DNA of 59,012 nucleotides from a virus (taxonomy: Duplodnaviria; Caudoviricetes): positions 1 to 59,012 of the IMG/VR virus record IMGVR_UViG_3300048999_000041; one strand, written 5' to 3'. The position numbers were made by a program, and so were the translations under genes. Position 1 is the first letter of the stretch. The number at the start of each line of letters is the position of its first letter. This document shows, one piece after another, positions 26,501 through 54,577 of this stretch. Under the pieces are notes generated by a model. It made no database searches, had not been told where the DNA came from, and saw only the letters and a program-made list of their open reading frames with translations.

Positions 26501-26530
26501 TTCGCGGGCAAAACGTCGCCTATAATGAGA
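26501..26530 (+). promoter_or_regulatory. CGCG-N14-TATAAT promoter P1
   Basis: TTCGCG-ggcaaaacgtcgcc-TATAAT-GAGA. Confidence 0.85.
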
Positions 26531-26548
26531 CCCTAACTAAGGAGCTGT

Positions 26549-26836
26549 ATGTTCGTTAAGAGCCCAAACAACGCGAAGCTGGATCGAGAGATCGCAGCTC
26601 AGTTCGACAAGCTGGAGGAGCTCAGAGATAGCCCAGAAGATTATAACAACGTCGTCGCGCGCATAGCTCAGCTGGAGAAGCTCAAGTCTGATGAAGGACT
26701 GAGGCCTCTCAGCTGGGACACTGTGCTCGTCGTCGGTGCCAACATCTTCGGCATCCTCTGGCTCGCCCGCTACGAGCGTGAGAATGTGATCAAATCGCAA
26801 ACCGCACTTCGCAACGTGATAAAGCCGAGACTTTAG
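26549..26836 (+). CDS. Cassette gene, small membrane-associated protein
   Basis: Between P1 and terminator; AAGGAG RBS; DTVLVVGANIFGILWLARYE motif. Confidence 0.8.
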   Translation: MFVKSPNNAKLDREIAAQFDKLEELRDSPEDYNNVVARIAQLEKLKSDEGLRPLSWDTVLVVGANIFGILWLARYERENVIKSQTALRNVIKPRL

Positions 26837-26860
26837 TACCGCCCGAAAAAGGATCAAAAA

Positions 26861-26896
26861 GGGAGATCGTGTTAAATACATGGTCTCTCTTTTTTT
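26861..26896 (+). terminator. Intrinsic terminator
   Basis: GGGAGATCGTGT/ACATGGTCTCTC stem + T7. Confidence 0.85.
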
Positions 26897-26955
26897 GCTT
26901 TAAAAAAATCCCGGGGGACATTTTCCACAAACTAAAAGATACTGATACGCGAAAC

Positions 26956-26984
26956 TCGCGCATATTTCATCTCCTATAATGAGA
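26956..26984 (+). promoter_or_regulatory. CGCG-N14-TATAAT promoter P2
   Basis: TCGCG-catatttcatctcc-TATAAT-GAGA; preceded by AGATACTGATACGCG box at 26937. Confidence 0.85.
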
Positions 26985-27005
26985 CCCACTATATAAGGAG
27001 ATGTT

Positions 27006-27233
27006 ATGACGAAGTGGTATGCTTTGGAAGTGGCGAAGACCGACCTCCCGCTGCTCAGATTCCTGAATGACGGATCCTTCCCTAAGACCCCGACCGGTAA
27101 ATACTATTTGGTATTTGGCGTGTCACGGGACGGGAAAGAGATCACCACTCAGATTCTGACCAAGAGCGAGATGTTCAAGCGCTACGACATGGCCAACACA
27201 AGCCCATTCCTCATCGCTTTAAAAGAGATCTAA
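27006..27233 (+). CDS. Cassette gene, hypothetical
   Basis: AAGGAG RBS, flanked by P2 and terminator. Confidence 0.8.
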   Translation: MTKWYALEVAKTDLPLLRFLNDGSFPKTPTGKYYLVFGVSRDGKEITTQILTKSEMFKRYDMANTSPFLIALKEI

Positions 27234-27264
27234 AAGCCATTGCCCCTTCGGGGGCTTTGGTTTT
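27233..27264 (+). terminator. Intrinsic terminator
   Basis: GCCCC-TTCG-GGGGC hairpin + T-rich tail. Confidence 0.8.
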
Positions 27265-27267
27265 GTC

Positions 27268-27297
27268 TTCGCGCATATTTTATCTCCTATAATAGAA
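27268..27297 (+). promoter_or_regulatory. CGCG-N14-TATAAT promoter P3
   Basis: TTCGCG-catattttatctcc-TATAAT-AGAA. Confidence 0.85.
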
Positions 27298-27323
27298 TCC
27301 AACCACATCCAAAAGGAGACCCC

Positions 27324-27551
27324 ATGACCAAGAAGATCAAGCAGATCGCTTCAGCCCCGAAGAGGATCGCTTCCCACGTCTACGTTCGTCGAGGCCGTTA
27401 CGGCGTCGCAGCTGGCATCATCGCCGGTAGCGTCATCGCACGCAACCTCGACAACGAGACGTACAAGGAGGCGATCGCCTTCATCAAGCTGAAGGGACTC
27501 GACGAAGAGTTCTTCAACCCAATGGAGTACGACTGGCAGGACATGGTCTAG
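27324..27551 (+). CDS. Cassette gene, small membrane-associated protein
   Basis: ATG 27324 after AAGGAG; hydrophobic YGVAAGIIAGSVIA. Confidence 0.8.
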   Translation: MTKKIKQIASAPKRIASHVYVRRGRYGVAAGIIAGSVIARNLDNETYKEAIAFIKLKGLDEEFFNPMEYDWQDMV

Positions 27552-27556
27552 TTCAA

Positions 27557-27588
27557 AGTGCGAATCCAAAACCTGGGTTCGCATTTTT
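27557..27588 (+). terminator. Intrinsic terminator
   Basis: AGTGCGAATCCA/TGGGTTCGCATT + T run. Confidence 0.85.
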
Positions 27589-27596
27589 CCCTGCAA

Positions 27597-27626
27597 TTCG
27601 CGTAAAAAACATGTCCTATAATAGAG
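27597..27626 (+). promoter_or_regulatory. CGCG-N14-TATAAT promoter P4
   Basis: TTCGCG-taaaaaacatgtcc-TATAAT-AGAG. Confidence 0.85.
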
Positions 27627-27705
27627 GAGAAACCGAAAGGTTTTGAACCGCCTATACTATAGTCTTCCCTTCGAGATTATATTTACAACTGGCGATTTCT
27701 TTTTT
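27623..27705 (+). ncRNA. Putative small RNA 1 (promoter-driven, ORF-less)
   Basis: AAACC-GAAA-GGTTT, CGCC/GGCG, TATAGTCT/AGATTATA helices; ends in T tract; no RBS/ORF. Confidence 0.55.
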
Positions 27706-27742
27706 CTGTCATCATATTTTAAGATAAGAAAGGTAAGTCCAA

Positions 27743-27946
27743 ATGGACGTTTATATTCTGACAAACCAAAAACCGGATTGGTCGGCACCCACGGGTGCTC
27801 CTATTTCAGTCCATTTAACACTTGACGGAGCTAAGAACGCTTTCTCAGGCGGTAAGTATTTTGACAAATGGCGTACCAAAGACAACGTACGGTGGAGTGG
27901 ACCGGACGGTTTTGGCTCCATTATCAAAATGGAACTACAAGACTAG
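27743..27946 (+). CDS. Hypothetical protein
   Basis: AAAGG RBS, 67 aa. Confidence 0.65.
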   Translation: MDVYILTNQKPDWSAPTGAPISVHLTLDGAKNAFSGGKYFDKWRTKDNVRWSGPDGFGSIIKMELQD

Positions 27947-27953
27947 ATCTTTT

Positions 27954-28027
27954 GGGCCTGTAGCTCAATTGGTCAGAGCAGCAGACTCATAATCTGTCAG
28001 ATCTGGGTTCGAGTCCCAGCAGGCCTA
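27954..28027 (+). tRNA. tRNA with CAT anticodon (probably Ile2, possibly Met)
   Basis: GGGCCTG/CAGGCCT acceptor, GCAGA-CTCATAA-TCTGT anticodon arm, TTCGAGT T-loop; no encoded CCA. Confidence 0.9.
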
Positions 28028-28052
28028 TATTTATACTCAAGATAGGAGACCC

Positions 28053-28382
28053 ATGCCCATTTCCGAAGAGCAGACCATCTGGTATCCCGGTATTTACCGC
28101 GGGTTAGAGGGGGACTACGCCACTACCCTCATAGAGGTGAAGGACGATGATCTCGTTCGTCTAGTTCAGGAACGAGCTGCGATAGATGGTGAGTGGACTA
28201 TCGAGAACTGGATTGTTGGAGATAACAATGAATACTTAATGCGCAAGATGATGGCTTGGGTCAGCGATCCAAAAAACATCCATCAGTGCGCAGAAGCAAA
28301 TTTAGTCATGAACCCCACGATCGACTGGATTTGCCGAGAGCTGGCCAATGCGTCTAAGTGGCTTTTTGACCCGGATTCGTAA
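28053..28382 (+). CDS. Hypothetical protein
   Basis: AGGAG RBS, 109 aa. Confidence 0.7.
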   Translation: MPISEEQTIWYPGIYRGLEGDYATTLIEVKDDDLVRLVQERAAIDGEWTIENWIVGDNNEYLMRKMMAWVSDPKNIHQCAEANLVMNPTIDWICRELANASKWLFDPDS

Positions 28383-28404
28383 ACAAACCAGTTCAGATAT
28401 TAGC

Positions 28405-28434
28405 TCGCGGAAAATTCCTCCCATTATACGAAGA
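28405..28434 (+). promoter_or_regulatory. Degenerate CGCG-type promoter P5
   Basis: TCGCG-N15-TATACG-AAGA; preceded by CAGATATTAG box. Confidence 0.5.
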
Positions 28435-28494
28435 GGCCGGATCGACCCTGTAGAGATCCCAACACCCTTAGCGGTGCACCTCTTTTTCTTTTTT
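28430..28494 (+). ncRNA. Putative small RNA 2
   Basis: GAAGAGG/CCTCTTT closing stem, GGATC/GATCC and CACC/GGTG hairpins, long T tail. Confidence 0.5.
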
Positions 28495-28498
28495 GGAG

Positions 28499-28528
28499 TT
28501 CGCGAAAAAAACATGCCCTATAGTGAGA
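28499..28528 (+). promoter_or_regulatory. CGCG-N14-TATAGT promoter P6
   Basis: TTCGCG-aaaaaaacatgccc-TATAGT-GAGA. Confidence 0.8.
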
Positions 28529-28591
28529 CCCATAACTGAAGCTATCCCAGCTTCGACTATAATCGCGAGATTGTAGTTGGGTTTCTTCTTT
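28525..28591 (+). ncRNA. Putative small RNA 3 (three-way junction)
   Basis: GAGACCCA/TGGGTTTC closing stem, GAAGCT/AGCTTC hairpin, GACTATAATC-GCGA-GATTGTAGTT GNRA hairpin, T tail. Confidence 0.6.
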
Positions 28592-28615
28592 GTCATCTAT
28601 TGAAAGGTTTGGTCA

Positions 28616-28777
28616 GTGCAAGCTAAGACGTCTAAGCGGCTCCATAATGTTGTCATCGAGTTCGCGAACGGCGTTACTCGGACTGTGAAGGTTAAAGCCA
28701 TTTCTCGTGAGCACGCTGAGAATCGCGCGCTTAAATTTCATCCGAATGCGATTGGAATCAAGCGTAATGCGTCGTAG
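28616..28777 (+). CDS. Small basic hypothetical protein (53 aa, not in ORF track)
   Basis: GTG after GAAAGG, open to TAG 28777. Confidence 0.5.
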   Translation: MQAKTSKRLHNVVIEFANGVTRTVKVKAISREHAENRALKFHPNAIGIKRNAS

Positions 28778-28910
28778 TCATACGACATATTGCGAAGTTT
28801 GCCCTAAGCCTTACGGCTTCTGGGCATTTATATTTGACTTGTTCATGGTTGCCATCACCGGTGGGTTTTGGCTCATCTGGATATTCGTGAGGGAGATGCG
28901 TCACCGATGA
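28767..28910 (+). CDS. Small membrane protein
   Basis: YGFWAFIFDLFMVAITGGFWLIWIFVREMR. Confidence 0.65.
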   Translation: MRRSHTTYCEVCPKPYGFWAFIFDLFMVAITGGFWLIWIFVREMRHR

Positions 28911-29057
28911 AAGAGTTTATCGGAGTAGTGCTTGCCGTTCTTGACGAGCGCAGAATGGATATTACGATCATCGTCACAACGTGTATTTGCATCGCTGCGG
29001 TATGGGCAATACTTCTCGCCTGGACTCAGTAGAGTCCACTATATTTTGAAAGGAAAT

Positions 29058-29843
29058 ATGCACATCATCAATGACGCACAGAAGCGAGTTCAGGATTTCG
29101 TTTCTGAGAACTCGTCAACGCTCCTCACTGCCGGTGGGGTTGTCGGCACAGTTACCACCGCGGTTCTGGCTGGTCGTGCCGGATACAAAGCAGCAGAGAT
29201 TGTCGCTGATCACCCGATGTTGCAAGACGTTGGGAAAGACGAAAAAGAGCTTCGTGATCGAACGAGAACCGAAAAGATTCAACTCGTCTGGTCAATCTAT
29301 ATTCCCCCCGTGATCACCGGCGGAGCAACAATCGCCAGCATTATCATGGCAAACAAGATGTCGGCTCAGCGTGCTGCCGCTCTGGCGGCTGCGTACGGTC
29401 TGTCACAGAAGCAATTCGAGGAATACAAGGCCAAGGTGGCTGAGAAGATCACTGGTCCGAAGAAGCAGCAGATCGCCGATGAGCTCGCACAGGAGAGAGT
29501 AGATCGTGCTCCGGGCGCATCGCAGATCGTCATCATCAACGGCGACGATGTTCTCTGCTTTGACGAGCCTACTGGTCGATACTTCAAGAGCTCCATGGAG
29601 AAGATCAATCGAGCGGCCAACTCAACCAACCAAGAGATCATCTCACACGGTCATGCCCGAGCTTCGCATTTCTACGAAGAGCTCGAGCTGCCGCCGACTA
29701 CCTGGTCCAACGACGTTGGTTGGAACCTGGACAACATGCTGGAGCTCGATATCACCACCACACAGGCGGATGATGGCAGGCCATGCTTGTCCATCAACTT
29801 TGCTCGCTTCCCGAACGAGGACTACCACCGCCAGGTGTATTAG
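29058..29843 (+). CDS. DUF6353-like conserved phage protein, paralog 1
   Basis: ENSSTLLTAGGVVGTVTTAVLA, ALAAAY, CFDEPTGRYFKSS; resembles 34440. Confidence 0.75.
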   Translation: MHIINDAQKRVQDFVSENSSTLLTAGGVVGTVTTAVLAGRAGYKAAEIVADHPMLQDVGKDEKELRDRTRTEKIQLVWSIYIPPVITGGATIASIIMANKMSAQRAAALAAAYGLSQKQFEEYKAKVAEKITGPKKQQIADELAQERVDRAPGASQIVIINGDDVLCFDEPTGRYFKSSMEKINRAANSTNQEIISHGHARASHFYEELELPPTTWSNDVGWNLDNMLELDITTTQADDGRPCLSINFARFPNEDYHRQVY

Positions 29844-29855
29844 GAGAGAAACCAA

Positions 29856-29963
29856 ATTTGGGCGTATGAGGATCGACAAAAAGGTATGAGGGCACTTCAT
29901 ATTTTACAAATCGATCGCCCCAGTCCCGGGGAAAGCGGAGCACGTGCGTTTCGCCGCCCAATT
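29856..29963 (+). ncRNA. Putative intergenic four-way-junction RNA
   Basis: TTGGGCG 29858/CGCCCAA 29955 closing stem enclosing GATCGA/TCGATC (with inner TATGAG/TTCATA), CCCC/GGGG and GCGGAGC/GTTTCGC hairpins; followed by TATATTT. Confidence 0.5.
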
Positions 29964-29991
29964 ATATTTTGTACCAAAAAAGGAGAGTTGT

Positions 29992-30144
29992 ATGTTTAAG
30001 AAGGACAAGCCGGTCTATAAGCGCCTTACTGACATCCGGCCCAAGTCTAAGAAGACCCCGAATAAGAAGCTCGTCGGAGCAAGTGTTGGTGTTGTTACCG
30101 TGCTGCTCGGATTGAGCGCCTTTAAGAACCGGGGACAGAAGTGA
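29992..30144 (+). CDS. Small basic membrane protein
   Basis: AAGGAG RBS; C-terminal TM. Confidence 0.6.
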   Translation: MFKKDKPVYKRLTDIRPKSKKTPNKKLVGASVGVVTVLLGLSAFKNRGQK

Positions 30145-30329
30145 TCCGTGGAGCGGTAATTCTAGCCGTGGGGTTCTCCCTCGGCTACGCCAAGGCCATG
30201 CACGATTCAGAAGATATTCGTGCTTTGCTTGCTCAGGCGGTTGATCTACTGCAGGAGCAGCAGCGAAAGTCGGAGGAAGCAGTTGATGGGACGGCAACCG
30301 AGACCCCCGAAGGAGAGACACATGAGTGA
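30141..30329 (+). CDS. Small membrane-anchored protein
   Basis: GTGA overlap; N-terminal hydrophobic segment. Confidence 0.6.
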   Translation: MIRGAVILAVGFSLGYAKAMHDSEDIRALLAQAVDLLQEQQRKSEEAVDGTATETPEGETHE

Positions 30330-30657: not shown

Positions 30658-30987
30658 ATGGATCGTGACCAATTTGAGAACATCCTGGATGCGCAAATCA
30701 AGCGTGTCCGGGATGTTCTGGTCTTAAAAGCGACCGAATACGCTAACGAAGATCGTCTCGCCAATTTCAAAAAGGCGGCGGTCCTTGCTGGTCGAGGAAT
30801 TCCGCAAATTATTGGTGGGATGATGATAAAACATACTGTGTCCATCTACGACATGATCGAAAGCGGCAAGCCATATTCTATTGATGTATGGAATGAGAAG
30901 ATCACCGACCACATCAACTACCTTATTCTTCTACGCGCCTCTTTGATCGAGAACGCTAATTCAGACCAAGGAACTTTATCTTGTTAA
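30658..30987 (+). CDS. All-alpha nucleotide-modification-associated / MazG-like protein
   Basis: KATEYA.EDRLANFK...KH...EKITDHINYLILL pattern. Confidence 0.55.
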   Translation: MDRDQFENILDAQIKRVRDVLVLKATEYANEDRLANFKKAAVLAGRGIPQIIGGMMIKHTVSIYDMIESGKPYSIDVWNEKITDHINYLILLRASLIENANSDQGTLSC

Positions 30988-31589
30988 AGAAAGTCATTAC
31001 CTATACCAACCCGTTCACCGACGAAGAGGTGAGCGAGGAGCATTACTTCCATATTTCCAAGGCCGATCTGGTCGAGATGGAGATGGAGGAGCATAATGCT
31101 ACATACGAGAAAGACGGCGAACAGCTCACCGGCATGCAGGCCAAGCTTCAACGAGTTATCGATTCCGAAGACGGCAAGGCCATTCTTTCAGAGTTTAAGG
31201 ACATCATTCGCCGGTCTTATGGCAAGAAAGACGGAGATCGCTTTATCAAGTCTTCTGAGATTTGGGCGGAGTTCTCTTCGTCCGAAGCGTATTCTCAGCT
31301 CATATTTGATCTGTGCACGGATGCTGAAATTGCTGGCGAGTTTGTCACCGGTATCATTCCCAAGAACTTGGATAAGATCGCTGAAGAGATTAAGTCGCGG
31401 GCAGATGTGGATCAAAGCGAGCCGGAGATCGACACAGCTCCTGATGTCGTTAATAATGCTAATATTTCTACAGCTTGGCCTTCCGACGAGGACTCAATCG
31501 CTCAAATTCTGTCACCCGACGAAGTGGCGGCAATGGACTCTGATGAACTGAAGTCCGGTCTTGCCGAAGGGCGCTACAAGCTCTCCTAG
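30981..31589 (+). CDS. Conserved phage protein with C-terminal MDSxE module
   Basis: MLKKVITY...YFHISKADL...SYGKK.GDRFIKS...F.SSEAYS motif conserved in this group; TTG start. Confidence 0.75.
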   Translation: MLKKVITYTNPFTDEEVSEEHYFHISKADLVEMEMEEHNATYEKDGEQLTGMQAKLQRVIDSEDGKAILSEFKDIIRRSYGKKDGDRFIKSSEIWAEFSSSEAYSQLIFDLCTDAEIAGEFVTGIIPKNLDKIAEEIKSRADVDQSEPEIDTAPDVVNNANISTAWPSDEDSIAQILSPDEVAAMDSDELKSGLAEGRYKLS

Positions 31590-32501: not shown

Positions 32502-32531
32502 TTCGCGTAAAAAACTACTCCTATAATAGAA
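32502..32531 (+). promoter_or_regulatory. CGCG-N14-TATAAT promoter P7
   Basis: TTCGCG-taaaaaactactcc-TATAAT-AGAA. Confidence 0.85.
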
Positions 32532-32555
32532 GACCCTACCTACAAGGAGTATCTA

Positions 32556-32828: not shown

Positions 32829-32864
32829 AAATGAGGATCTGCCTAATACGCAGGTTCTCATTTT
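32829..32864 (+). terminator. Intrinsic terminator
   Basis: AAATGAGGATCTGC/GCAGGTTCTCATTT + T. Confidence 0.85.
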
Positions 32865-32867
32865 GTT

Positions 32868-32897
32868 TTCGCGTTATATTCATCTCCTATAATGAGA
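32868..32897 (+). promoter_or_regulatory. CGCG-N14-TATAAT promoter P8
   Basis: TTCGCG-ttatattcatctcc-TATAAT-GAGA. Confidence 0.85.
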
Positions 32898-32922
32898 CCT
32901 ATATCTATCTAAGGAGACCCTT

Positions 32923-33090: not shown

Positions 33091-33099
33091 TCACCTTAT

Positions 33100-33130
33100 A
33101 ATGAGAATCCAAAACATGGGTTCTCATTTT
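33100..33130 (+). terminator. Intrinsic terminator
   Basis: AATGAGAATCCA/TGGGTTCTCATT + TT; homologous to 27557. Confidence 0.85.
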
Positions 33131-33133
33131 GCC

Positions 33134-33163
33134 TTCGCGTAAAAAACACTCCCTATAATGAGA
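33134..33163 (+). promoter_or_regulatory. CGCG-N14-TATAAT promoter P9
   Basis: TTCGCG-taaaaaacactccc-TATAAT-GAGA. Confidence 0.85.
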
Positions 33164-33253
33164 GAGACAACTGTCGCCGATCCCCGCAAGGGGCAATCCG
33201 TCTGCTGGTTGCGACATAAAAGACTATTACCAGTGTCTTTCTTTTTCTTTTTT
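33160..33253 (+). ncRNA. Putative small RNA 4 (pseudoknot)
   Basis: GAGAGAGACA/TGTCTTTCTT closing stem, TGTCGC/GCGACA, CCCC-GCAA-GGGG, loop CTGGT pairing with ACCAG; long T tail. Confidence 0.6.
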
Positions 33254-33273
33254 GCCAAATCTAAAGGATTTTA

Positions 33274-33915
33274 ATGGAAGACTTCCCAGCCAATAGCCAG
33301 AGGGCTAGAGCGGAACAACCGCGAGAGAAGGTCGAGCGGGTTACCTCAGCTGAAGCTGTTAGGCGGAAGCGAGGGCTCGGCCATAAATTCAAGGAGACCT
33401 TTCTCCCTGGAGATACACGCAGCATGACAGAGCATGTGGTTCAGGGTGTGGTTCTTCCCGGAATCAGAGACCTGTTGTTTGATACTATTTCTGACGCAAT
33501 TCATCGTATGTTCTTCGGGGATAGTAATCGTCCGAGATACGGTGGCGGTGCGTCAATGCCATCGAGCTATGGCCGTGTGGATTATCCTCATACACCATAT
33601 AATCGTATGAACACTACCGCAGCTACGCAGCAGCCACAGCAGAGAATGCTGTCAAGAGGGGCTCGAGCTCGTCATAATTTTGACGATCTGATTATTCCTT
33701 CACGCCAAGAAGCAGAAGAAGTTCTCGACCGTATGTATGACCTGTTGTCAAAATATGGCCGTGTTGAAGTATCGGTTCTGTATGAGCTTACCGGCATCCA
33801 AAGTTCTCATACGGATATGAAGTGGGGCTGGACCAACCTCAAGGGGGCTAAGGCGGTAAAGCTTAGAAACGGAGGATTTCTTCTTGACCTGCCTGAACCA
33901 GAGGCCTTTGTATGA
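33274..33915 (+). CDS. Conserved hypothetical phage protein
   Basis: FPANS...SRQEAEEVLDRM...LYELTG...TDMKWGWTNL...LLDLPEP conserved in this group. Confidence 0.8.
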   Translation: MEDFPANSQRARAEQPREKVERVTSAEAVRRKRGLGHKFKETFLPGDTRSMTEHVVQGVVLPGIRDLLFDTISDAIHRMFFGDSNRPRYGGGASMPSSYGRVDYPHTPYNRMNTTAATQQPQQRMLSRGARARHNFDDLIIPSRQEAEEVLDRMYDLLSKYGRVEVSVLYELTGIQSSHTDMKWGWTNLKGAKAVKLRNGGFLLDLPEPEAFV

Positions 33916-37214: not shown

Positions 37215-40200
37215 ATGGACTTCTATCAGATCCGAGTGCACGAGACAAAAGAAGGGCCGCTGGAGCTATATCCCGACTTTATCGTCGGGCGTTCTGAGGA
37301 TCTGATGGTCCAAGGTCGTACTTTCTATGCTATTTGGGACGAAGAGAAGAAATTATGGTCGCAAGATGAGTATGATGTACAGCGACTGGTTGATGAAGAT
37401 CTGCGCCAGGAGGCGAATCGACTACATAAGGAGACTGGACAGAAGTACACTATACGTTCTATGCGCTCATTCGGTTCAAACTCCTGGACGCAGTTTCGTA
37501 AGTTCGTTGCTCATATTTCCGATAATAGTCATCCGCTAGATTCCAAGCTGGTCTTTGCTAACGCCGAGATAAAAAAGGAAGACTATGCCTCAAAACAACT
37601 CCCCTACGCACTGTCTGAGGGGGCCACGCCAGCTTGGGATGAGCTCCTCGCAACTCTCTATGCTCCGGAAGAGCGCGCAAAGATTGAGTGGGCTATTGGC
37701 TCGATTGTTTCGGGGGATAGTAAACGCATTCAGAAATTTCTCGTCTTCTATGGCCCGGCTGGTACTGGTAAGTCGACGATTCTCGGAATTATCGAGAAAC
37801 TCTTCGAAGGATATACCACGACATTCGATGGCAAGGCGTTGGGTAACTCCAATTCGTCATTTGCCACCGAAGCGTTTAAACATCACCCCCTTGTCGCGAT
37901 CCAGCACGATGGGGATCTTTCGCGGATCGAGGATAATACACGCCTGAACTCCATCATCTCACACGAGACGATGACTATGAACGAGAAGTACAAGCCATCA
38001 TATTCAGCAAGAGTTGACGCCATGCTGTTCATGGGCTCCAATCAGCCGGTAAAGATCTCTGATGCAAAATCGGGAATCATCCGACGTCTGATGGACGTGC
38101 ATCCGACAGGTATCAAGATTCCAGCCAAGCACTATCAGACTCTCATGACGCAAATCGGCTTTGAACTCGGTGCCATAGCGCACCGTTGTCTCTCTGTATA
38201 TTTGTCTATGGGTAAGAATTACTACGACGCATATCGTCCGTTGGAGATGATGTTGCAGACCGACGTCTTCTTTAACTTCATCGAAGCACATTTTGATGTG
38301 TTCAAGTCACAAGATCATACCACGCTAAAGCAAGCGTATATCTTGTATAAGGAATATTGCTCGGACAGCGGAATCGAGAGACCTATGCCGCAATACAAAA
38401 TGCGAGAGGAGTTGCGAAACTACTTTGATGAGTTTCACGATCGAGGTGAACTCGACGGCCAACCAGTACGAAGCCTTTACTCCGGGTTTAACGCCAATAA
38501 GTTCAAAGCGCCCAAAGACGATCCGGCGACATTTTCGTTAGTGCTTGAAGAAAAGACCTCTCTTCTTGATGAGTTTTTAGCTGACTACAAAGCACAGTTG
38601 GCTTTGACCAAAGATACCGAGTACCAAAAGGCCGGAGATCCGGAGAGAAAATGGGCTAATGTAAAAACCAAGCTATCAGATATTGATACGCGAAAAATTC
38701 ACTGGGTTAAAGTTCCTGAAAATCACGTGGTGATCGATTTCGATCTGAAGGACAGTAATGGAACCAAAGCTCTCGAGCGAAATCTCGAAGCGGCCAGTCA
38801 GTGGCCACCCACTTACGCTGAGTTGTCAAAATCAGGTTCTGGCGTACATCTTCATTTTAGCTACACCGGAGACCCCGATGAGCTTGCGTCTCAATACGCT
38901 GAAGGCATTGAAGTTAAAGTGTATCGAGGGGAAGCTGCCTTGCGCCGTCGTGTGTCCAGATGTAACGCGGTGCCTATTGCGGAGATATCTACCGGACTCC
39001 CAGTAAAGCCTAGAAAGGACAAGATGCTCAAGGAGAAAACTATCAAGAGCGAACACGGGTTGCGGGAACTGATAAAGAAGAATCTGCGTAAGGAGATTCA
39101 TCCAGGCACCAAATCTTCGGTGGACTTTATCAAGCATATTCTTGATGAAGCGCACGAGTCGGGAATGAAATACGACGTCAGCGATATGCGTAACACGATT
39201 GTCGCGTTCGCCAACAACTCTACTAACCAGGCCACTCAGGCCCTGAAAACGGTTATGAACATGAAGTGGGCGTCTGATGAGCCGGATTCAGAAGGTTCTG
39301 GAGTCAGTGAGCCCGTAGTGGAAGTGGCTGACGATCGACTTGTCTTCTTCGATGTCGAGGTATATTCTAATCTGTTTGTTATTTGTTGGAAGTTTCTTGG
39401 CTCCGAAGAAGTAGTCAAGATGATTAACCCAAAACCTCACGAAGTGGCCGAGCTATTTAAATTGAAGTTAGTGGGCTTCTATAATCGACGATATGACAAT
39501 CATATTCTATATGCGGCGGCTATGGGGGCAACCAACGAAGAGCTCTTTCGTTTAAGCAGTAAGATCATTGAAGGCAATCGCTCGGCTACCTTCGGAGCGG
39601 CGTATAACTTGTCTTACGCCGATATTTGGGATTTCTCTTCGGTTAAGCAGAGTCTGAAGAAGTTCGAGCTTGACCTGGGAATACTTCATATGGAGTTAGA
39701 TATTCCCTGGGATCAGGCGGTGGACGAAAGCGATTGGCAGCGAGTGGTTGATTATTGTGTCAATGACGTTAAGGCAACTGAGAAAGTCTTCGAAGATAGA
39801 AAAGCAGATTTCGTAGCTCGACAGATCTTAGCCGAGTTATCCGGTCTTACGGTAAATGATACCACACAGAATCACACCGCGCGAATCATATTTGGCAACG
39901 ACAAACAAGCCTCTAAGAAGTTTATCTACACCGATCTTAGCGAAGAATTCCCCGGGTATGAATTTAAGCTTGGCAAGAGTTATTACCGCGGAGAAGAGCC
40001 TGGCGAAGGGGGCTATGTCTACGCTGAACCGGGAATGTATGAAAACGTCGCAGTATTAGACGTTGCCTCCATGCATCCCAACAGTATTATCGCCTTAAAT
40101 GCGTTCGGCCCGTATACTCAGAAGTTTGAAGACCTTATTAAAGCTCGTATTGCAATTAAGCGTAAAGATTTTGATGCTGCCGCCAACATGTTGGACGGTA

Positions 40201-41057
40201 AGCTCACTTCGTTTATTACTCTCCCCCACGAAGGCTGGGATGTCGAGGGAGCGGAGAAGCTTGCCTACGCGCTTAAGATCGTGATCAATATTGTCTATGG
40301 TCTCACTTCAGCTAAATTTAATAATCCTTTCCGAGATATTCGCAACATCGATAATATTGTCGCCAAGCGTGGCGCTCTGTTCATGATCGATCTCAAGCAC
40401 GCTCTGCAGGACAAGGGCGTCCAGGTCGTGCATATCAAGACCGACTCGGTGAAGATTCCCAACGCAACACCGGAGATCATCGAGTTTGTCACGGAATTCG
40501 GTAAGAAGTACAGTTACGACTTCGAACACGAGGCAACATATAACAAATTCTGTCTGGTCAACGATGCGGTTTACGTGGCCGGTATGGAGACCGTGCCTTG
40601 GGACGATCCTTCGGTTCCCTTCCCGGGATATTCTTGGACAGCGGTTGGTGCTCAGTTTCAGCATCCCTATGTGTTCAAGGCTCTGTTCTCTCACGAGGAA
40701 ACGGAGTTCAAGGATTTCTGTGAAGGTCGGTCGGTGGTCAAGGGCGCCATGTATCTAGACTTTAGCGAAGAAGTCAATGGTATGGAGCCCGATATTTCCA
40801 AGATGCGTCACGTGGGTAAGACCGGACTTTTCGTTCCAGTGTTAGAGGGTGGAGCAAAGCTCTATCGGTATAATGAAGAGAAATACTATGCTGTGTCAGG
40901 TACTAAGGGACATCTCTGGATGGAGGCAGCGGTTGCCGAGAACAAGGATGATCTGCAGATTGACATGACATATTTCGAGAAGTTAAAGAAAGCAGCAATC
41001 GAGGCAATCCAAAAGTTTGGTGCGTTTGACGATCTTATAAAACCCAAGGAAAGGTAA
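37215..41057 (+). CDS. Fused SF3 helicase - primase - family B-like DNA polymerase
   Basis: Walker A GPAGTGKST; primase VIDFD...SKSGSGVHLH; ExoI FFDVEVY, ExoII YNRRYD, ExoIII YCVNDV; Pol motifs DVASMHP, KIVINIVYG, KTDS. Confidence 0.9.
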   Translation: MDFYQIRVHETKEGPLELYPDFIVGRSEDLMVQGRTFYAIWDEEKKLWSQDEYDVQRLVDEDLRQEANRLHKETGQKYTIRSMRSFGSNSWTQFRKFVAHISDNSHPLDSKLVFANAEIKKEDYASKQLPYALSEGATPAWDELLATLYAPEERAKIEWAIGSIVSGDSKRIQKFLVFYGPAGTGKSTILGIIEKLFEGYTTTFDGKALGNSNSSFATEAFKHHPLVAIQHDGDLSRIEDNTRLNSIISHETMTMNEKYKPSYSARVDAMLFMGSNQPVKISDAKSGIIRRLMDVHPTGIKIPAKHYQTLMTQIGFELGAIAHRCLSVYLSMGKNYYDAYRPLEMMLQTDVFFNFIEAHFDVFKSQDHTTLKQAYILYKEYCSDSGIERPMPQYKMREELRNYFDEFHDRGELDGQPVRSLYSGFNANKFKAPKDDPATFSLVLEEKTSLLDEFLADYKAQLALTKDTEYQKAGDPERKWANVKTKLSDIDTRKIHWVKVPENHVVIDFDLKDSNGTKALERNLEAASQWPPTYAELSKSGSGVHLHFSYTGDPDELASQYAEGIEVKVYRGEAALRRRVSRCNAVPIAEISTGLPVKPRKDKMLKEKTIKSEHGLRELIKKNLRKEIHPGTKSSVDFIKHILDEAHESGMKYDVSDMRNTIVAFANNSTNQATQALKTVMNMKWASDEPDSEGSGVSEPVVEVADDRLVFFDVEVYSNLFVICWKFLGSEEVVKMINPKPHEVAELFKLKLVGFYNRRYDNHILYAAAMGATNEELFRLSSKIIEGNRSATFGAAYNLSYADIWDFSSVKQSLKKFELDLGILHMELDIPWDQAVDESDWQRVVDYCVNDVKATEKVFEDRKADFVARQILAELSGLTVNDTTQNHTARIIFGNDKQASKKFIYTDLSEEFPGYEFKLGKSYYRGEEPGEGGYVYAEPGMYENVAVLDVASMHPNSIIALNAFGPYTQKFEDLIKARIAIKRKDFDAAANMLDGKLTSFITLPHEGWDVEGAEKLAYALKIVINIVYGLTSAKFNNPFRDIRNIDNIVAKRGALFMIDLKHALQDKGVQVVHIKTDSVKIPNATPEIIEFVTEFGKKYSYDFEHEATYNKFCLVNDAVYVAGMETVPWDDPSVPFPGYSWTAVGAQFQHPYVFKALFSHEETEFKDFCEGRSVVKGAMYLDFSEEVNGMEPDISKMRHVGKTGLFVPVLEGGAKLYRYNEEKYYAVSGTKGHLWMEAAVAENKDDLQIDMTYFEKLKKAAIEAIQKFGAFDDLIKPKER

Positions 41058-47276: not shown

Positions 47277-47306
47277 TTCGCGTAGTAAACATCTCCTATA
47301 ATGAGA
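47277..47306 (+). promoter_or_regulatory. CGCG-N14-TATAAT promoter P10
   Basis: TTCGCG-tagtaaacatctcc-TATAAT-GAGA, abutting the tRNA-Lys 3' end. Confidence 0.85.
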
Positions 47307-47330
47307 CCCAAACTACTATAGGAGTATTGA

Positions 47331-47513: not shown

Positions 47514-47529
47514 CCCGGCTTCTCTTTTT
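47501..47529 (+). terminator. Intrinsic terminator
   Basis: AGAGAAGTC/GGCTTCTCT + T run. Confidence 0.7.
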
Positions 47530-47557
47530 CGCGCATATTTCATCTTGTATAATAGAA
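47528..47557 (+). promoter_or_regulatory. CGCG-N14-TATAAT promoter P11
   Basis: TTCGCG-catatttcatcttg-TATAAT-AGAA. Confidence 0.85.
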
Positions 47558-47578
47558 CCTACTATACAAGGAGTATAC

Positions 47579-50143: not shown

Positions 50144-50155
50144 AAAAGAGAATGT

Positions 50156-50368
50156 ATGCACAATACCATTTGTATTGGCTGCCAACACGGTGAGCATCAT
50201 AGTACCGACGTTATCCAAAACCCGCCCAAGGGGGCTCTAGGGGGTTCACGCTGCCGCTGTGAAGGCGAATGTGTGGACGGTCGTTATATCCCTCCGCAAT
50301 TTAAGAAGGTTATTAAAGCGTTTAAAGACGCATTAGAGAAGGAGGTTAGACATGGAAGATCATTATAG
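50156..50368 (+). CDS. Small Cys-rich protein
   Basis: CIGC..GEH...CRCEGEC. Confidence 0.55.
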   Translation: MHNTICIGCQHGEHHSTDVIQNPPKGALGGSRCRCEGECVDGRYIPPQFKKVIKAFKDALEKEVRHGRSL

Positions 50369-50675: not shown

Positions 50676-51280
50676 TAGACCAAGACTATTGCGGCTCAAT
50701 AAGTTATGAGCCTGGTTACATAGCATGTCTTTTGCCTTTAGGTCACGATGGGCCATGTGTACACGAGTGGGCTAATGAGTCCTGGATTCACAACCGGAGA
50801 ATTTGGTGGGTCTTGTTCGGAGCATTCCTGTCGCCTATGACTCGAGTTCGGGCTTTCTGGCATTACATCATAAAGAGACATGAGTATGAGATCTGCATGG
50901 CCTGTGGCCGCCCGGTGGGCCGCTTTTACGCCAATTGCTCGTATTGGAGCACTGATGACGACCTGTGGCTGCGTGTCACAGGAGACCCTACCAGTATCCG
51001 TTGCCCTGCCTGCTTCAGCATTGAGGCTGGCGCTAAGGGGCTTCATATTCGGTGGGAAGCTATAGAAGGGATTAGGTCGGTGACAAAAGAAGACCCGCAC
51101 GATACTATTAAAATTGATCACGAGAGTCTAAGGGCGGCTAAGCAGAAGTACAGAATGGTAGTGATACAGTTAGAAGAAAGACGGCACCCAGACGATGTTC
51201 TTCACCCAGCATACAAGCTAGGACAATTTCTCACCGAGGCACTAGGATCAGCTTGGGCCGACGCAGACGAAAAGAGGTGA
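50672..51280 (+). CDS. Hypothetical Cys-rich mosaic protein
   Basis: ATGA overlap; CLLPLGHDGPC, CMACG, CPAC. Confidence 0.6.
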   Translation: MIDQDYCGSISYEPGYIACLLPLGHDGPCVHEWANESWIHNRRIWWVLFGAFLSPMTRVRAFWHYIIKRHEYEICMACGRPVGRFYANCSYWSTDDDLWLRVTGDPTSIRCPACFSIEAGAKGLHIRWEAIEGIRSVTKEDPHDTIKIDHESLRAAKQKYRMVVIQLEERRHPDDVLHPAYKLGQFLTEALGSAWADADEKR

Positions 51281-51283
51281 CTA

Positions 51284-51634
51284 ATGAGAATTGAAGATCC
51301 CGGGCACATATACTTTGTGCAGAACGTGGATGGTTCGGGAGAACAGAGAATTCGGTTTGTTCGCCGACGCGACTCAAACGCTGAGCTTCTAAAGACAGAT
51401 AGTCGTGAAGAAGGTATTTTAGCTCAAGAGTTAGTTCGTGTTCTAATTGACAGGACGTTGTATCTCAATGCTGAAGCTCCGTGTGTGGAAAATGTGTCTA
51501 TTGTCAACGATCTTCGTAATGTTCTAGTAAATTTCGAAGCTCGAGCTGCGCGTCGCACTATAGAAAAGAAGTCTATGCCAGAGCGGGCCACTGTGTGCCG
51601 AACATGTCAGCATATATTATGTGATCATAAGTAA
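51284..51634 (+). CDS. Tad1-like protein (putative anti-Thoeris/CBASS sponge)
   Basis: DPGHIY...QRIRFVRR...EGILAQELVRVLIDRT.YLN...PCVEN...LR..L..FEAR pattern parallels Tad1 (GH.Y, I.F, G...E.L...DR, C.EN). Confidence 0.6.
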   Translation: MRIEDPGHIYFVQNVDGSGEQRIRFVRRRDSNAELLKTDSREEGILAQELVRVLIDRTLYLNAEAPCVENVSIVNDLRNVLVNFEARAARRTIEKKSMPERATVCRTCQHILCDHK

Positions 51635-51652
51635 GTAGAAAGGAGGTGACGT

Positions 51653-51883
51653 ATGCCATCTAAATTAGAAGAAACTTGGCAGCATAATACTGCCGATAAT
51701 ATGATTGTTTATGTTTGCCCTGGCCCATCAGACGAATCAGAGGAGTGTACGTTTTGGATGACGGGGCCGGGCTATTGTATGTATCATCCACATATTGATC
51801 TAGTGCCCAAACCTATTCGGCATACTACAGTACCTCCGGATCTAAATCTACCAAAACCGAGCGAAAGATACGACGACTTTTAG
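51653..51883 (+). CDS. Small Cys/His protein
   Basis: AAAGGAGGTG RBS; YVCP...C...PGYCMYH. Confidence 0.6.
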   Translation: MPSKLEETWQHNTADNMIVYVCPGPSDESEECTFWMTGPGYCMYHPHIDLVPKPIRHTTVPPDLNLPKPSERYDDF

Positions 51884-51894
51884 AAAGGAGGAAA

Positions 51895-53115
51895 ATGCAT
51901 ATTCATCCTGATCTGGCTCCGCATCAGCTAACCGCCGTAGGCAAGCTGTCTGATGGCAAGATCCTCGTTGGCGGCGTTGGATCAGGGAAGTCGCGGGTGG
52001 GTCTGGCCTATTACGCATTAACTAAGGGTCATGAGGATATCTACGTCATCACCACCGCTAAGAAGCGAGACAACCTCGACTGGGAGAAAGAGGCGGTCAA
52101 GTTCGGTATCGGTAAAGAGCGTGACGCTACGCTATACGGCGTGCTGCACGTAGACAGCTGGAACAACATCGCCAAGTACGTTGACATATCCAACGCCTTC
52201 TTCATATTCGATGAGCAGCGAGTAGTAGGCTCGGGTAAATGGGCTAAGTCATTTTTAAAGATCGCTCGTAACAATAGGTGGATCATGCTATCAGCGACCC
52301 CCGGAGACACTTGGTTAGACTACATCCCGGTGTTCATCGCCAACGGGTTTTACCGTAATCGCACCGAGTTCAAGCGCGAACACGTCATCTATAACTCGTT
52401 TACCAAGTTTCCCAAGGTTGAGCGTTACGTGGGCGTGGGCAAGCTGTTAAAGCATAGAAACGACATATTAGTCTCTATGCCCTACGCCAAGCAGACCACC
52501 CGGCATGAGAAGATCATATGGTGTGATTATGATGAAGAGGCGATGAGAAGAGTTGCTCACGGCCGCTGGAACATATACAAAGACGAACCGATCCGAGACA
52601 TAGCTGAACTGTTTGGCGTGATGCGAAGAGTGGCTAACTCTGATCCCAGTCGTGCTCGAGCCATAGGAAAGCTGATCAAGCTAAACCCCAGATTGATCTT
52701 ATTTTATAACTTCAACTACGAGTTAGACATCATCAGAGAGCTGTGTGGACCCCTTTGGAAGTCTTCGAAAGTGGCGTTTGCCGAGTGGAACGGGCATAAG
52801 CACGAGGAGATTCCCGAGAGTCCTAAGTGGGTCTACGCCGTGCAGTATGTCGCCGGTTCTGAAGGGTGGAACTGCGTGTCTACCAATGCAACGTGCTTTT
52901 ATAGCTTGCCCTATTCGTATAAGATGTTCGAGCAGGCCCACGGTAGAACCGACAGACTGAACACACCATATTTAGATCTGTATTACTATGTTATGAGGTC
53001 AAAAGCAGACATTGATCACGCTATCTGGCGCTCGCTTAAGGCGAAAAAGGCCTTCCAGGTCGATCATTTCGACATGACCAACGCAGAATTTGCCGACTTT
53101 TCGATCGAGAAATGA
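51895..53115 (+). CDS. SF2 (DEAD/SNF2-like) DNA helicase
   Basis: GGVGSGKS, IFDEQ, LSATPGD, GSEGWN, QAHGRTDRLN. Confidence 0.9.
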   Translation: MHIHPDLAPHQLTAVGKLSDGKILVGGVGSGKSRVGLAYYALTKGHEDIYVITTAKKRDNLDWEKEAVKFGIGKERDATLYGVLHVDSWNNIAKYVDISNAFFIFDEQRVVGSGKWAKSFLKIARNNRWIMLSATPGDTWLDYIPVFIANGFYRNRTEFKREHVIYNSFTKFPKVERYVGVGKLLKHRNDILVSMPYAKQTTRHEKIIWCDYDEEAMRRVAHGRWNIYKDEPIRDIAELFGVMRRVANSDPSRARAIGKLIKLNPRLILFYNFNYELDIIRELCGPLWKSSKVAFAEWNGHKHEEIPESPKWVYAVQYVAGSEGWNCVSTNATCFYSLPYSYKMFEQAHGRTDRLNTPYLDLYYYVMRSKADIDHAIWRSLKAKKAFQVDHFDMTNAEFADFSIEK

Positions 53116-53545
53116 GGAGAGATTTGCCAAGAATGTTTAAGGGGGTCTATGAAAAAAGTGCTCCCAGTATCTAAAACGTCAGATATTGGCGATTGTTAAA
53201 CTTGAATTTGAGGGGGTCAAAAATGGTCGTTTCAGAGAGCTCAAAAAGGCCGAAATCAGATACTGAGACGGGTAATTTTGGTTGAGCGTGAGAACAACGT
53301 TGGCAAATCTTGGCAAAATAATGATCAATTTGTCCGGAAAATGCGGGGTTTTACGGGTCAGTATCTGCCAAGAAAACAGAGGTTAAAAACTTTTATATAA
53401 TCGCTTCCCAATATCTGTATATGTCATATATGCCTATATCTCTATACTCTATCTACGCGCGAGATAATATAAAAGCAGATACTGATACGTGTTTTATAAA
53501 AACTTTTTCATAAACGTTTTTGGCAAGATACTGGGAATCGGGTCT
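53116..53545. other. Putative replication origin (iteron-like repeats, AT-rich)
   Basis: ORF-free; 7 AGATAYTG boxes in both orientations, 5 TGCCAA/TTGGCA boxes, duplicated AAAAACTTTT, TA-rich core. Confidence 0.55.
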
Positions 53546-53562
53546 ATCACAAGGAATGAGGC

Positions 53563-53802
53563 ATGTCGGTACAAATAACACACCCAATCAAATCTGTTGA
53601 TGCTCAACTAGCAGAACACCTCCTGAGAGCCGAGGAGAGCCTCATAGCGGCCCTTGAACTGTTTTCTAAGGGTAAGCGTCCAGAACGGCCTTCTGAGTAC
53701 TTAAAACGCCTTACAAGAGCTCAGGAGCTAGTTACGTCGATATATCGCGAAGAATTAGTGAGAAAGCGTGGTCCAATTAGGCTTAGGCCGAAGAAAGGAT
53801 AG
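53563..53802 (+). CDS. Hypothetical protein
   Basis: 79 aa, GAGG RBS. Confidence 0.6.
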   Translation: MSVQITHPIKSVDAQLAEHLLRAEESLIAALELFSKGKRPERPSEYLKRLTRAQELVTSIYREELVRKRGPIRLRPKKG

Positions 53803-53805
53803 ATA

Positions 53806-54042
53806 ATGGATGATTTTGATGTTCATGATCCGAATGTAGTTATTGATGCGTTTAACAACACGACCGACGAGCTTTACTTTCATCTCGTTCGCGCCGAGTA
53901 TCATGCTAGAAAAGCGCACGATTTGTTGTATAAGGAAAACGCCCCACGACGTAGCATATGGTATCGAATGTCTGTTAGTCGTGCACAAAGCCTTCTTATG
54001 ACTTTATGGATTCGGGAGATGAATCGAAGGAATAAATCATGA
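53806..54042 (+). CDS. Hypothetical protein
   Basis: 78 aa, AAGGA RBS. Confidence 0.6.
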   Translation: MDDFDVHDPNVVIDAFNNTTDELYFHLVRAEYHARKAHDLLYKENAPRRSIWYRMSVSRAQSLLMTLWIREMNRRNKS

Positions 54043-54536
54043 CCGTAGAAGAGTGGGTTGCGGTAGAAGGGTTTCCTGGATATAGCGTAAACCCCTTTGG
54101 TCAAGTTAAGAAAGACTCTACCGGTCGTGTGCTGCATACTAGAGTAAATCAGTATGGCGTTCCTTATGTTGGGCTTATGCGAGGTTGGAAACAGTGTATT
54201 CGTTCGTTACCTCGTCTGGTCGCTTCGGCATTTATTCCACAACCGAACGAAATTTTTGATACACCAATCAATCTTGATGGAGATCGTAGTAATTGTTGTG
54301 TCGATAATCTTCAGTGGCGGCCTCGATGGTATGCGGTTCATTATAACAACCAATTTAAAGATAGATATTCTACTCCCATAGACGGTAAGATAAGAGATAG
54401 TGCTTCCGGTGCAGTGTTTCCTAATTCCTTTGTTGCTGCTTGTAGTTTTGGGCTTTTGGAGCGAGAAGTCGTATTATCGATTTTAAATAGGACCTTAGCT
54501 TGGCCCACATATCAACAATTTGAGCTTGCAGAGTAA
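54039..54536 (+). CDS. NUMOD4 / HNH-like DNA-binding protein
   Basis: EEWVAVEGFPGYSVNPFGQV (NUMOD4), RLVASAFIP...INLDGDRSN...NLQW (degenerate HNH). Confidence 0.75.
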   Translation: MTVEEWVAVEGFPGYSVNPFGQVKKDSTGRVLHTRVNQYGVPYVGLMRGWKQCIRSLPRLVASAFIPQPNEIFDTPINLDGDRSNCCVDNLQWRPRWYAVHYNNQFKDRYSTPIDGKIRDSASGAVFPNSFVAACSFGLLEREVVLSILNRTLAWPTYQQFELAE

Positions 54537-54547
54537 TCAGATACTGA

Positions 54548-54577
54548 TACGCGTGCTTTTCGCGTCGTGTAATAGAA
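54548..54577 (+). promoter_or_regulatory. CGCG-N14-TGTAAT promoter P12 (heads the nuclease-RNAP operon)
   Basis: CGCG 54550, 14-nt spacer, TGTAAT-AGAA; overlapped by AGATACTGATACGCG box at 54539. Confidence 0.7.

Follow-up and report, generated by a model that had tools for sequence, protein, structure and literature searches.

The ten-copy element

Ten sites in the complete virus record IMGVR_UViG_3300048999_000041 (59,012 bp, analysed over its whole length and referred to below as the window) share an element of about 33 nt, in which a CGCG box is followed after 14 nt by a TATAAT hexamer (TATAGT at one site). Their sequence and placement leave little doubt that they form a class of promoters dedicated to this phage lineage. 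We further consider it reasonably likely that these candidate promoters are read by the phage's own two-barrel RNA polymerase of 962 aa, and not by the sigma-A holoenzyme of the host.

The pattern CGCG-N14-TATAAT occurs in nine exact copies in the window, where 0.16 would be expected, and none of 100 shuffled sequences reached this number. All nine, which the original prediction had listed correctly, lie on the + strand (see Table 1 for the start of each CGCG box). Eight of them are extended to TTCGCG, and neither the reverse strand nor a backwards control contains a single copy. An unprompted repeat search recovered the same copies (repeat families D2, D3 and D5). Looser variants carry no weight, because the simple pattern with two mismatches gives 55 matches against 54.1 expected, which is chance level.

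A 33-position matrix, trained on 45 sites from five related phages with the window excluded from training, recovered ten sites in the window. Six of these score between 29.6 and 40.0, while the four at which the hexamer is followed by AGA score 8.2-10.8, because the training pattern demanded [GA]A after the hexamer. The next-best score on the + strand is 0.2 and the best score anywhere on the minus strand is -2.0; the best scores obtained from 50 random sequences had a mean of 2.3 and a maximum of 14.2. The window maximum of 40.0 belongs to the site at 28501, which bears out the TATAGT variant proposed for this position. The virion-gene arm, in which no copy had been noticed before, is likewise devoid of sites in the matrix scan (positions 1-26,500, both strands, best score -0.9).

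The original prediction had counted twelve promoters. Its 'degenerate' site at 28406 (28404..28429, + strand, TTATAC) and its site 'P12' with TGTAAT at 54550 (54539..54573, + strand) score -8.8 and -10.2, respectively; as the matrix places both at background, the count is ten. The CGCG at 54550 forms the end of one copy of a second repeat, AGATACTGATACGCG (repeat family D8). The suggestion that P12 drives the operon of the polymerase rested on this site and is lost with it.

The full element consists of the TTCGCG box, an A/T-rich stretch, a conserved CA 7-8 nt upstream of the hexamer, CC, the hexamer, and then GAGACC or AGAA, and so spans from the box to about 7 nt beyond the hexamer. The hexamer, which is similar to a housekeeping -10 box, reads TATAAT at nine sites and TATAGT at one; GAGA follows it at six sites and AGA at four, in line with the earlier description. 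The earlier claim of a non-sigma70 geometry also holds. The conserved upstream box lies 14 nt from the hexamer, which is preceded by CC and not by TG, and a canonical scan for TTGACA-16/18-TATAAT gave 8 matches against 9.2 expected, and 18 against 21.1 expected, with none of the ten sites listed.

Many copies begin immediately after a hairpin with a T-run, and the region from 25.5 to 34.5 kb holds 18 terminator-like sites against 8.4 expected. At seven of the ten sites a start codon led by a Shine-Dalgarno (SD) sequence opens a short gene 22-30 nt past the hexamer, and five of these seven short genes close with a predicted hairpin/T-run terminator. At the other sites (27599, 28501 and 33136) a structured leader of 91-120 nt without an open reading frame (ORF) intervenes. 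We interpret the sites as promoters because they occupy a single strand, follow directly upon terminators and, at seven of the ten, precede SD-led starts at this short distance.

The ORF at 33274, downstream of promoter 8, is the first of a same-strand gene run that contains the DNA polymerase gene. A leader ending in a terminator lies between this promoter and the ORF, and read-through or antitermination may therefore gate the gene run. A further TATAAT in this region (33097..33131) has no upstream box and is probably not a promoter.

The element in related phages and in bacterial genomes

Searches with tblastn detected the polymerase in 250 isolated phage records, of which 95 are from Arthrobacter, 55 from Gordonia, 54 from Streptomyces and 13 from Lactococcus, with Rhodococcus, Microbacterium, Curtobacterium and Faecalibacterium among the other hosts; identity to the polymerase of the window is never above 53% in these matches. 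Eight of the 250 records were fetched for the study of the motif. The context [CT]TCGC[AG]-N14-TATAAT-GA surrounds 10 of 11 + strand TATAAT hexamers in Teacup (Arthrobacter), 6 of 6 in DrGrey (Streptomyces) and 11 of 11 in Avazak (Gordonia). By the pattern TATA[AG]T[AG]A the motif context is present at 14 of 14 hexamers in ReqiPepy6 (Rhodococcus) and at 7 of 11 in the oral phage D_HF4_2. The sites of the relatives start right after the tail and lysis genes, ahead of rows of small ORFs, and matches to TCGCR-N14-TATAAT are confined to one strand in every fetched locus.

In 54 sites from six phages, T-19, C-18, G-17, C-16, A-8, C-7, C-2, C-1 and the GAGACCC from +6 to +12 are conserved (positions relative to the start of the hexamer). 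Information content is raised from -19 to +12 and is high at -19 to -15 (TCGCA), with the qualification that -17 to -15, the hexamer and +6/+7 are partly fixed by the selection pattern.

Two Lactococcus lineages of 33-34% G+C, the polymerases of which are 39-41% identical to that of the window, carry related elements. Phage 1706 has seven exact + strand copies of C[AG]CA-N14-TATAGT-AGAAAG against 0.32 expected; this motif was first spotted by eye in intergenic spacers and then pattern-searched, as the word-count search was swamped by T-runs. Phage P092 has ten copies of TTTTACAyACCC-TATAAT-GArA. In both lineages the CA (which in 1706 is A-8, C-7 and A-6) as well as the hexamer and purine start are retained in the register of the actinophages, whereas the far upstream box differs (CACA in 1706, TTTA in P092). 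Among the named phages that bear the motif, the polymerases are 39-56% identical to the one in the window.

A repeat from cluster AU Arthrobacter phages is very probably the same element, judging from its size and place and from its match to Teacup. The available text of the Giantsbane preprint (10.1101/2020.01.10.891226) reports for all AU phages a 32-bp intergenic repeat, which occurs six times between small genes (28.5-30 kb in the AU genomes), flanks genes rearranged between these phages and is read there as a recombination boundary; 'promoter' and 'RNA polymerase' occur 0 times in this text. If the repeats were chiefly such boundary sequences, which shuffle small gene cassettes and are not transcription signals, one would also understand why the copies in the window flank small, variable genes. 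We nevertheless regard this explanation as very improbable. A recombination substrate needs neither a strict single orientation, nor a fixed distance to SD sequences and start codons, nor a position after terminators. Moreover, individual positions are conserved between phages whose G+C differs by 26 points and which have no other intergenic similarity, and promoters can act as recombination points as a by-product.

That recombination boundary is the only mention of the repeat we found, and no literature linking it to transcription came up in a search that left supplements and closed journals outside. A search for the string TATAATGAGAC returned unrelated papers only, and papers on Rhodococcus, Microbacterium and Faecalibacterium phages and on Arthrobacter phage diversity contained nothing on the motif.

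In a survey of bacterial and archaeal genomes, with one genome for each of 185,579 species, the two-box consensus was present in only 11 stretches, ten of them with single copies in unrelated taxa. None of the eleven belongs to an Arthrobacter, Streptomyces, Gordonia, Rhodococcus or Lactococcus record, and none encodes the polymerase. The eleventh stretch, a contig of 1,569 bp binned as a Treponema metagenome-assembled genome, has three copies and a tRNA-like gene and is most likely a phage fragment. This near-absence from bacterial genomes indicates that the element is not a host promoter type.

Leaders and the start of transcription

In four ORF-less units, the closing stem was originally said to begin immediately after the hexamer, which would place the start of the RNA at the end of the hexamer. 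Predicted folds agree with this for three units, in which the closing stem begins at the first base past the hexamer (28525, 33160 and 28430). In the unit at 33160, GAGAGAGACA is predicted to pair with UGUCUUUCUU. The unit at 28525 is the strongly folded 60-nt RNA with a T-run that follows promoter 5 (predicted; z = -5.3), in which GAGACCC pairs with GGGUUUC. The closing stems of the ORF-less units end at a T-run, and P092 and 1706 display the same pattern.

The exact register found less support. In an offset control, stems of at least 8 pairs numbered 6 at offset 0 and 0-5 at other offsets; at lower thresholds, offsets from -2 to +4 gave similar counts, with 0-3 beyond +10. Since a purine run can pair with a pyrimidine run in several registers, the effect is not sharp, and what the predicted stems support is a start in the vicinity of the hexamer rather than precisely at its end. 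A tRNA-Ala of ReqiPepy6 begins 8 nt past a hexamer (fetched locus 13174-13281), so that the start in this phage should lie no further downstream than that. Stems and tRNA together favour a start close to the hexamer without fixing its exact position.

In several relatives a tRNA or tRNA-like sequence comes right after the element, separated from it by a 5-9 nt leader (ReqiPepy6, P092 and the 1,569-bp contig). The tRNA-like sequences of P092, at about 5592 and 5980 of the fetched locus, have the form TATAAT-GAGAAGAAAGACTTTAGCTCAG. ARAGORN called tRNAs in ReqiPepy6 and an odd one in the 1,569-bp contig (946-1036), and none in P092. Within the window, the T-rich terminator tails of the leaders at 28430-28495 and 33160-33254 are near-identical (repeat D10, 74% identity).

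The 962-aa polymerase

From its sequence motifs and its modelled fold, the 962-aa protein is a predicted RNA polymerase that is probably of the two-barrel YonO/QDE-1 kind, and it is not T7-like. It matches phrog_4291 ('RNA-dependent RNA polymerase') over its full length (E = 0). Its GADFDGD motif (residues 542-548; DxDGD loop), which corresponds to the loop by which the largest subunit of cellular polymerases binds metal, is invariant in 33 homologues and in 8 homologues from named phages. The AlphaFold model has a predicted local distance difference test score (pLDDT) of 72.3, i.e., moderate confidence. With this model, the eight best solved matches in Foldseek are QDE-1 chains (E 1.2e-4 to 5.5e-4, probability 1.00), followed by the largest subunits of Pol IV, the African swine fever virus polymerase and Pol II. 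Sequence comparison to solved structures, both with the single sequence and with a profile, yielded no useful relative. Homologues are abundant, as 7,998 of 8,000 scored protein clusters match at E <= 1e-5.

The Pfam family RNA_pol (PF00940, T7-type) has no match in the 962-aa protein. A T7-type RNA_pol is also missing from the six frames of the window, in a search that is weak alone as its control was silent. At the C-terminus, matches to HTH_7 and Sigma70_r4_2 are both sub-threshold, and many homologues carry precomputed matches to HTH_23 and to Sigma70_r4 or Sigma70_r4_2. The polymerase is the sole recognisable transcription protein among the 39 window proteins scanned. A sigma-70 region 2 was found in no frame of the window, in a search whose control was positive in 10 of 14 genomes. 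The 20 mid-genome ORFs gave no Pfam match of a regulator-like or DNA-binding kind, in scans that included no search aimed at the MotA/AsiA families.

The available part of 10.1101/842583 gives the same two-barrel identification for homologues in Streptomyces BI phages, Lactococcus phage 1706 and a Faecalibacterium phage. The motifs of YonO and crAss-like enzymes, DxDGD and helix-turn-helix (HTH) domains at both ends are described there, and activity is predicted. According to the same partial text, few non-structural genes are common to the whole phage group, namely those of a helicase, an HNH endonuclease and a RecB exonuclease, as well as the polymerase and a small hypothetical protein. A cis-element conserved throughout the group requires a trans-factor that is conserved as widely.

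The conserved block also includes a 'conserved hypothetical protein' (10.1101/842583, in the part available), which, from its position, would correspond to the 102-aa phrog_4303 protein adjoining the polymerase gene in the window. This small protein is a possible partner of the polymerase. The polymerase homologue of 1706 (ORF75) was labelled 'structural protein' by the depositors, and the ReqiPepy6 record repeats this label, which is an annotation lead only. The 460-nt gap before the polymerase gene of 1706 (record 51634-52096) contains at least three copies of ctatcacgaaaaaacttcgggaaaacttcggga.

Which enzyme reads the sites

We favour the phage enzyme as the reader of the sites because their geometry is compressed and lacks a -35 element, because bases are conserved that sigma would not read, and because this geometry persists across two host phyla. 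In addition, no other conserved regulator was recognised, and the enzyme has DNA-binding modules of its own. The original assignment to a phage RNA polymerase accordingly survives as plausible, on sites that are very probably promoters. Its T7-like logic does not, given a two-barrel enzyme without a Pfam RNA_pol match.

Under this interpretation the HTH modules of the polymerase, two at the N-terminus and one at the C-terminus that resembles sigma region 4, would read the upstream box or boxes, and the A/T hexamer would serve as the melting region. RNA synthesis would begin at the purine after the hexamer or no more than a few bases away from it, which is nearer than in sigma-70 promoters, where the start is usually 6-9 nt after the hexamer. 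Seven promoters would drive short genes and three would drive structured ORF-less leaders. Neither the virion genes nor the polymerase operon are preceded by a site, and both must therefore be transcribed otherwise. Read-through on circular or concatemeric DNA could account for them, as could another promoter type.

Alternatively, the host sigma-A may read TATAAT as a -10 element, with a phage activator or sigma-remodelling factor bound to the TCGC box (some 30 nt ahead of the start) and the flanks, or with flanks that merely strengthen a -10-only promoter; the two-barrel enzyme would then serve other genes, e.g., the virion arm. The hexamer is a perfect housekeeping -10 at nine of the ten sites, the sites stand before small genes that follow directly upon the tail and lysis genes, as is typical of an early region, and the polymerase gene, at the far end of the map, has no such promoter. 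A box 14 nt from the -10 element also resembles the spacing of the MotA box in T4. Furthermore, the characterised relative YonO transcribes late genes, as stated in the available portion of PMC5467207.

Still, several features make transcription by sigma-A rather unlikely in our opinion. The sites have neither a -35 element at sigma spacing nor a TG extension, and both lactococcal lineages keep the same compressed geometry, although promoters of Lactococcus that lack both -35 and TG are expected to be weak. Conservation extends through +6 to +12, the 39 scanned window proteins included no other recognisable DNA-binding or sigma-like protein, and bacterial genomes almost entirely lack the two-box consensus. 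Finally, the predicted stems of the ORF-less units use the bases right after the hexamer, and a start 7 nt downstream would drop these bases from the RNA.

Co-occurrence of motif and polymerase had been proposed as a check. The strict form of the motif is present in 92 IMG/VR stretches, many of which have several copies on one strand, and the polymerase is encoded in 63 of 88 distinct motif-bearing records, or in 31 of 33 when only records at least 90% complete are considered. One of the two exceptions is a provirus with a single motif copy, which is probably there by chance.

A number of observations weigh against the phage polymerase as the reader. The association just described goes in the anticipated direction but is not independent evidence, because all bearers belong to one kin lineage and may share both features by common descent. 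The other exception, a 94%-complete record, has 13 motif copies and no polymerase gene; as this record is linear, the polymerase end may be missing from it. In the human faecal phage MT835495.1, the polymerase homologue of which is 40% identical, no promoter core was seen and no promoter-like word is repeated; only AAAATCAAAATGGA recurs (6-8 times), and it includes a start codon. TATAAT is the exact -10 consensus of the housekeeping sigma in Actinobacteria and Firmicutes, and -10-only promoters are common in Actinobacteria. The fold likeness to QDE-1 is weak, with template modelling (TM) scores of 0.27-0.30 for a model of pLDDT 72. Lastly, the polymerase gene itself has no such promoter in the matrix scan, so that the enzyme would have to come in with the virion or else be produced by the host enzyme first.

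A more specific version of the phage-polymerase interpretation is possible but doubtful. The polymerase would be packed in the virion and injected, would dispense with a separate sigma by means of its built-in sigma-like HTH, would read the TCGC box, CA and TATAAT, and would start right after the hexamer. If the enzyme is injected, the ten sites would represent immediate-early promoters, in this case of a very large cross-phylum phage group.

Comparison with known systems

Systems in which a phage polymerase reads phage-specific promoters are known. T7-type promoters share with the element a long, contiguous one-strand consensus before phage genes that is specific to the lineage, with a conserved block of about 20 nt or more (here -19 to +12). 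They also share an A/T-rich 'TATA' stretch followed by a purine-rich start region, which in the 1706 version reads CACTATAG. In contrast to T7, the enzyme of the window is unrelated (no Pfam RNA_pol match, predicted two-barrel fold), and the hexamer equals the bacterial -10 consensus.

YonO of the Bacillus prophage SPbeta is likewise a single chain of about 100 kDa with a DxDGD loop, encoded by a siphovirus. Both enzymes would belong to the same superfamily according to the text available of 10.1101/842583 and from the QDE-1 fold match, an assignment made with no direct comparison to the YonO sequence. They differ in that the window enzyme bears HTH modules at both ends, and in that YonO transcribes one late operon (PMC5467207, in part), whereas the candidate promoters of the window head early and replication genes. 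The promoter sequence and factor requirement of YonO were left open in the portion of PMC5467207 available.

The virion RNA polymerases of N4-like and crAss-like phages are injected and read early promoters, and the crAss-like enzyme is also two-barrel; for the window enzyme, packaging is an annotation lead only. Those enzymes are much larger, and N4 promoters are hairpins, whereas the hairpins of the window are terminators upstream of the box. N4-type hairpin promoters were accordingly rejected for the window, where the hairpins ahead of the box bear T-runs and close the gene that comes before. The middle promoters of T4 combine a host-type -10 with a phage box at about -30 that replaces the -35, at a short spacer, and are similar in this respect. 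They depend on MotA and AsiA, an activator and a co-activator of the phage that redirect the host sigma. In the window, general Pfam scans recognised no MotA/AsiA-like activator, and conservation runs downstream of the hexamer.

On the more specific reading, with an injected polymerase, the element would give YonO-like single-subunit polymerases their first described promoter consensus. With a candidate promoter of 33 nt defined in cultured model phages, the question can be tested directly in vitro. Confirmation would explain how low-G+C phage genes are expressed in hosts of quite different G+C, would provide a new orthogonal polymerase/promoter pair for Gram-positive hosts, and would correct the common annotations 'HTH DNA-binding protein' and 'RNA-dependent RNA polymerase'.

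The second repeat and other features of the window

The second repeat, AGATACTGATACGCG, has five + strand copies against 0.36 expected (Table 1), one of which lies shortly before promoter 2. A role as regulator or origin site is possible. Two copies lie within an ORF-free, A/T-rich gap (53116-53562) and another precedes the polymerase operon. The repeat is not shared by the fetched loci of the relatives, which contain matches with one mismatch only, at chance level.

Table 1. Candidate promoters and other features of the window, with coordinates
Feature	Position	Strand	CGCG start	Hexamer	Following bases	Details	Matrix score
Candidate promoter 1	26501..26533	+	26503	TATAAT 26521-26526	GAGACCC	box TTCGCG 26501-26506; ATG 26549	30.6
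Candidate promoter 2	26955..26987	+	26957	TATAAT 26975-26980	GAGACCC	box CTCGCG; ATG 27006	38.3
Candidate promoter 3	27268..27300	+	27270	TATAAT 27288-27293	AGAATCC	ATG 27324	8.3
Candidate promoter 4	27597..27629	+	27599	TATAAT 27617-27622	AGAGGAG	120-nt leader; ATG 27743	8.2
Candidate promoter 5	28499..28531	+	28501	TATAGT 28519-28524	GAGACCC		40.0
Candidate promoter 6	32502..32534	+	32504	TATAAT 32522-32527	AGAAGAC	ATG 32556	9.5
Candidate promoter 7	32868..32900	+	32870	TATAAT 32888-32893	GAGACCT	ATG 32923	31.6
Candidate promoter 8	33134..33166	+	33136	TATAAT 33154-33159	GAGAGAG	114-nt leader ending in T-run; ATG 33274	29.6
Candidate promoter 9	47277..47309	+	47279	TATAAT 47297-47302	GAGACCC	right after tRNA-Lys; ATG 47331	38.2
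Candidate promoter 10	47528..47560	+	47530	TATAAT 47548-47553	AGAACCT	ATG 47579	10.8
Terminator-like hairpin and T-run	26856..26894	+				closes unit 1	
Terminator hairpin and T-run	27555..27590	+				closes unit 3, directly 5' of promoter 4; z = -5.6	
Terminator hairpin and T-run	32829..32867	+				closes unit 6, leads into TTCGCG box of promoter 7	
TATAAT without upstream box	33097..33131	+		TATAAT		terminator hairpin 33103-33125 immediately after, closing unit 7; z = -4.5; score 12.4	
AGATACTGATACGCG copies	26937-26951, 38678-38692, 53258-53272, 53477-53491, 54539-54553	+					
Single-subunit two-barrel RNA polymerase, 962 aa (YonO/QDE-1 kind)	55464..58352	+				HTH regions at N- and C-terminus	
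102-aa protein, phrog_4303	58353..58661	+				adjoins polymerase gene	
Large terminase	5629-7380					left arm	
Tape-measure protein	17438-22231					left arm, with further virion genes	
Primase/DNA-polymerase fusion	37215-41057					right arm	

All long ORFs of the window are on the + strand. Besides the replication fusion protein and the 962-aa polymerase (55464-58352), the right arm encodes a helicase, an HNH endonuclease and an exonuclease. The ends of the record share an exact overlap of 127 nt (1-127 = 58886-59012; repeat family D6), catalogued as a 'direct terminal repeat', which would rather reflect the assembly of a circular or permuted map with overlapping ends. The related ReqiPepy6 is annotated with a 3' cos overhang.

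In the virion arm, the same 66-nt stretch, comprising the ribosome-binding site and the first codons, opens three genes (7364-7429, 7822-7887 and 22303-22368; 70-83% identity), and the N-termini of the three proteins are related. The ORF at 3073-3555 contains a 30-nt tandem repeat (3079-3372). Just upstream of the terminase, a 532-aa protein (4017-5615) combines a 2'-5' RNA ligase/LigT-like N-terminal domain with DUF7211 repeats, and a 370-aa protein (8312-9424) has collagen-like Gly-X-Y repeats (8512-8758) and a CBM_5_12 domain. A match to Phage_TAC_17 (Pfam 'phage tail assembly chaperone', E 5.9e-40) is located at 30981-31589, in the non-structural arm and distant from the tail genes.

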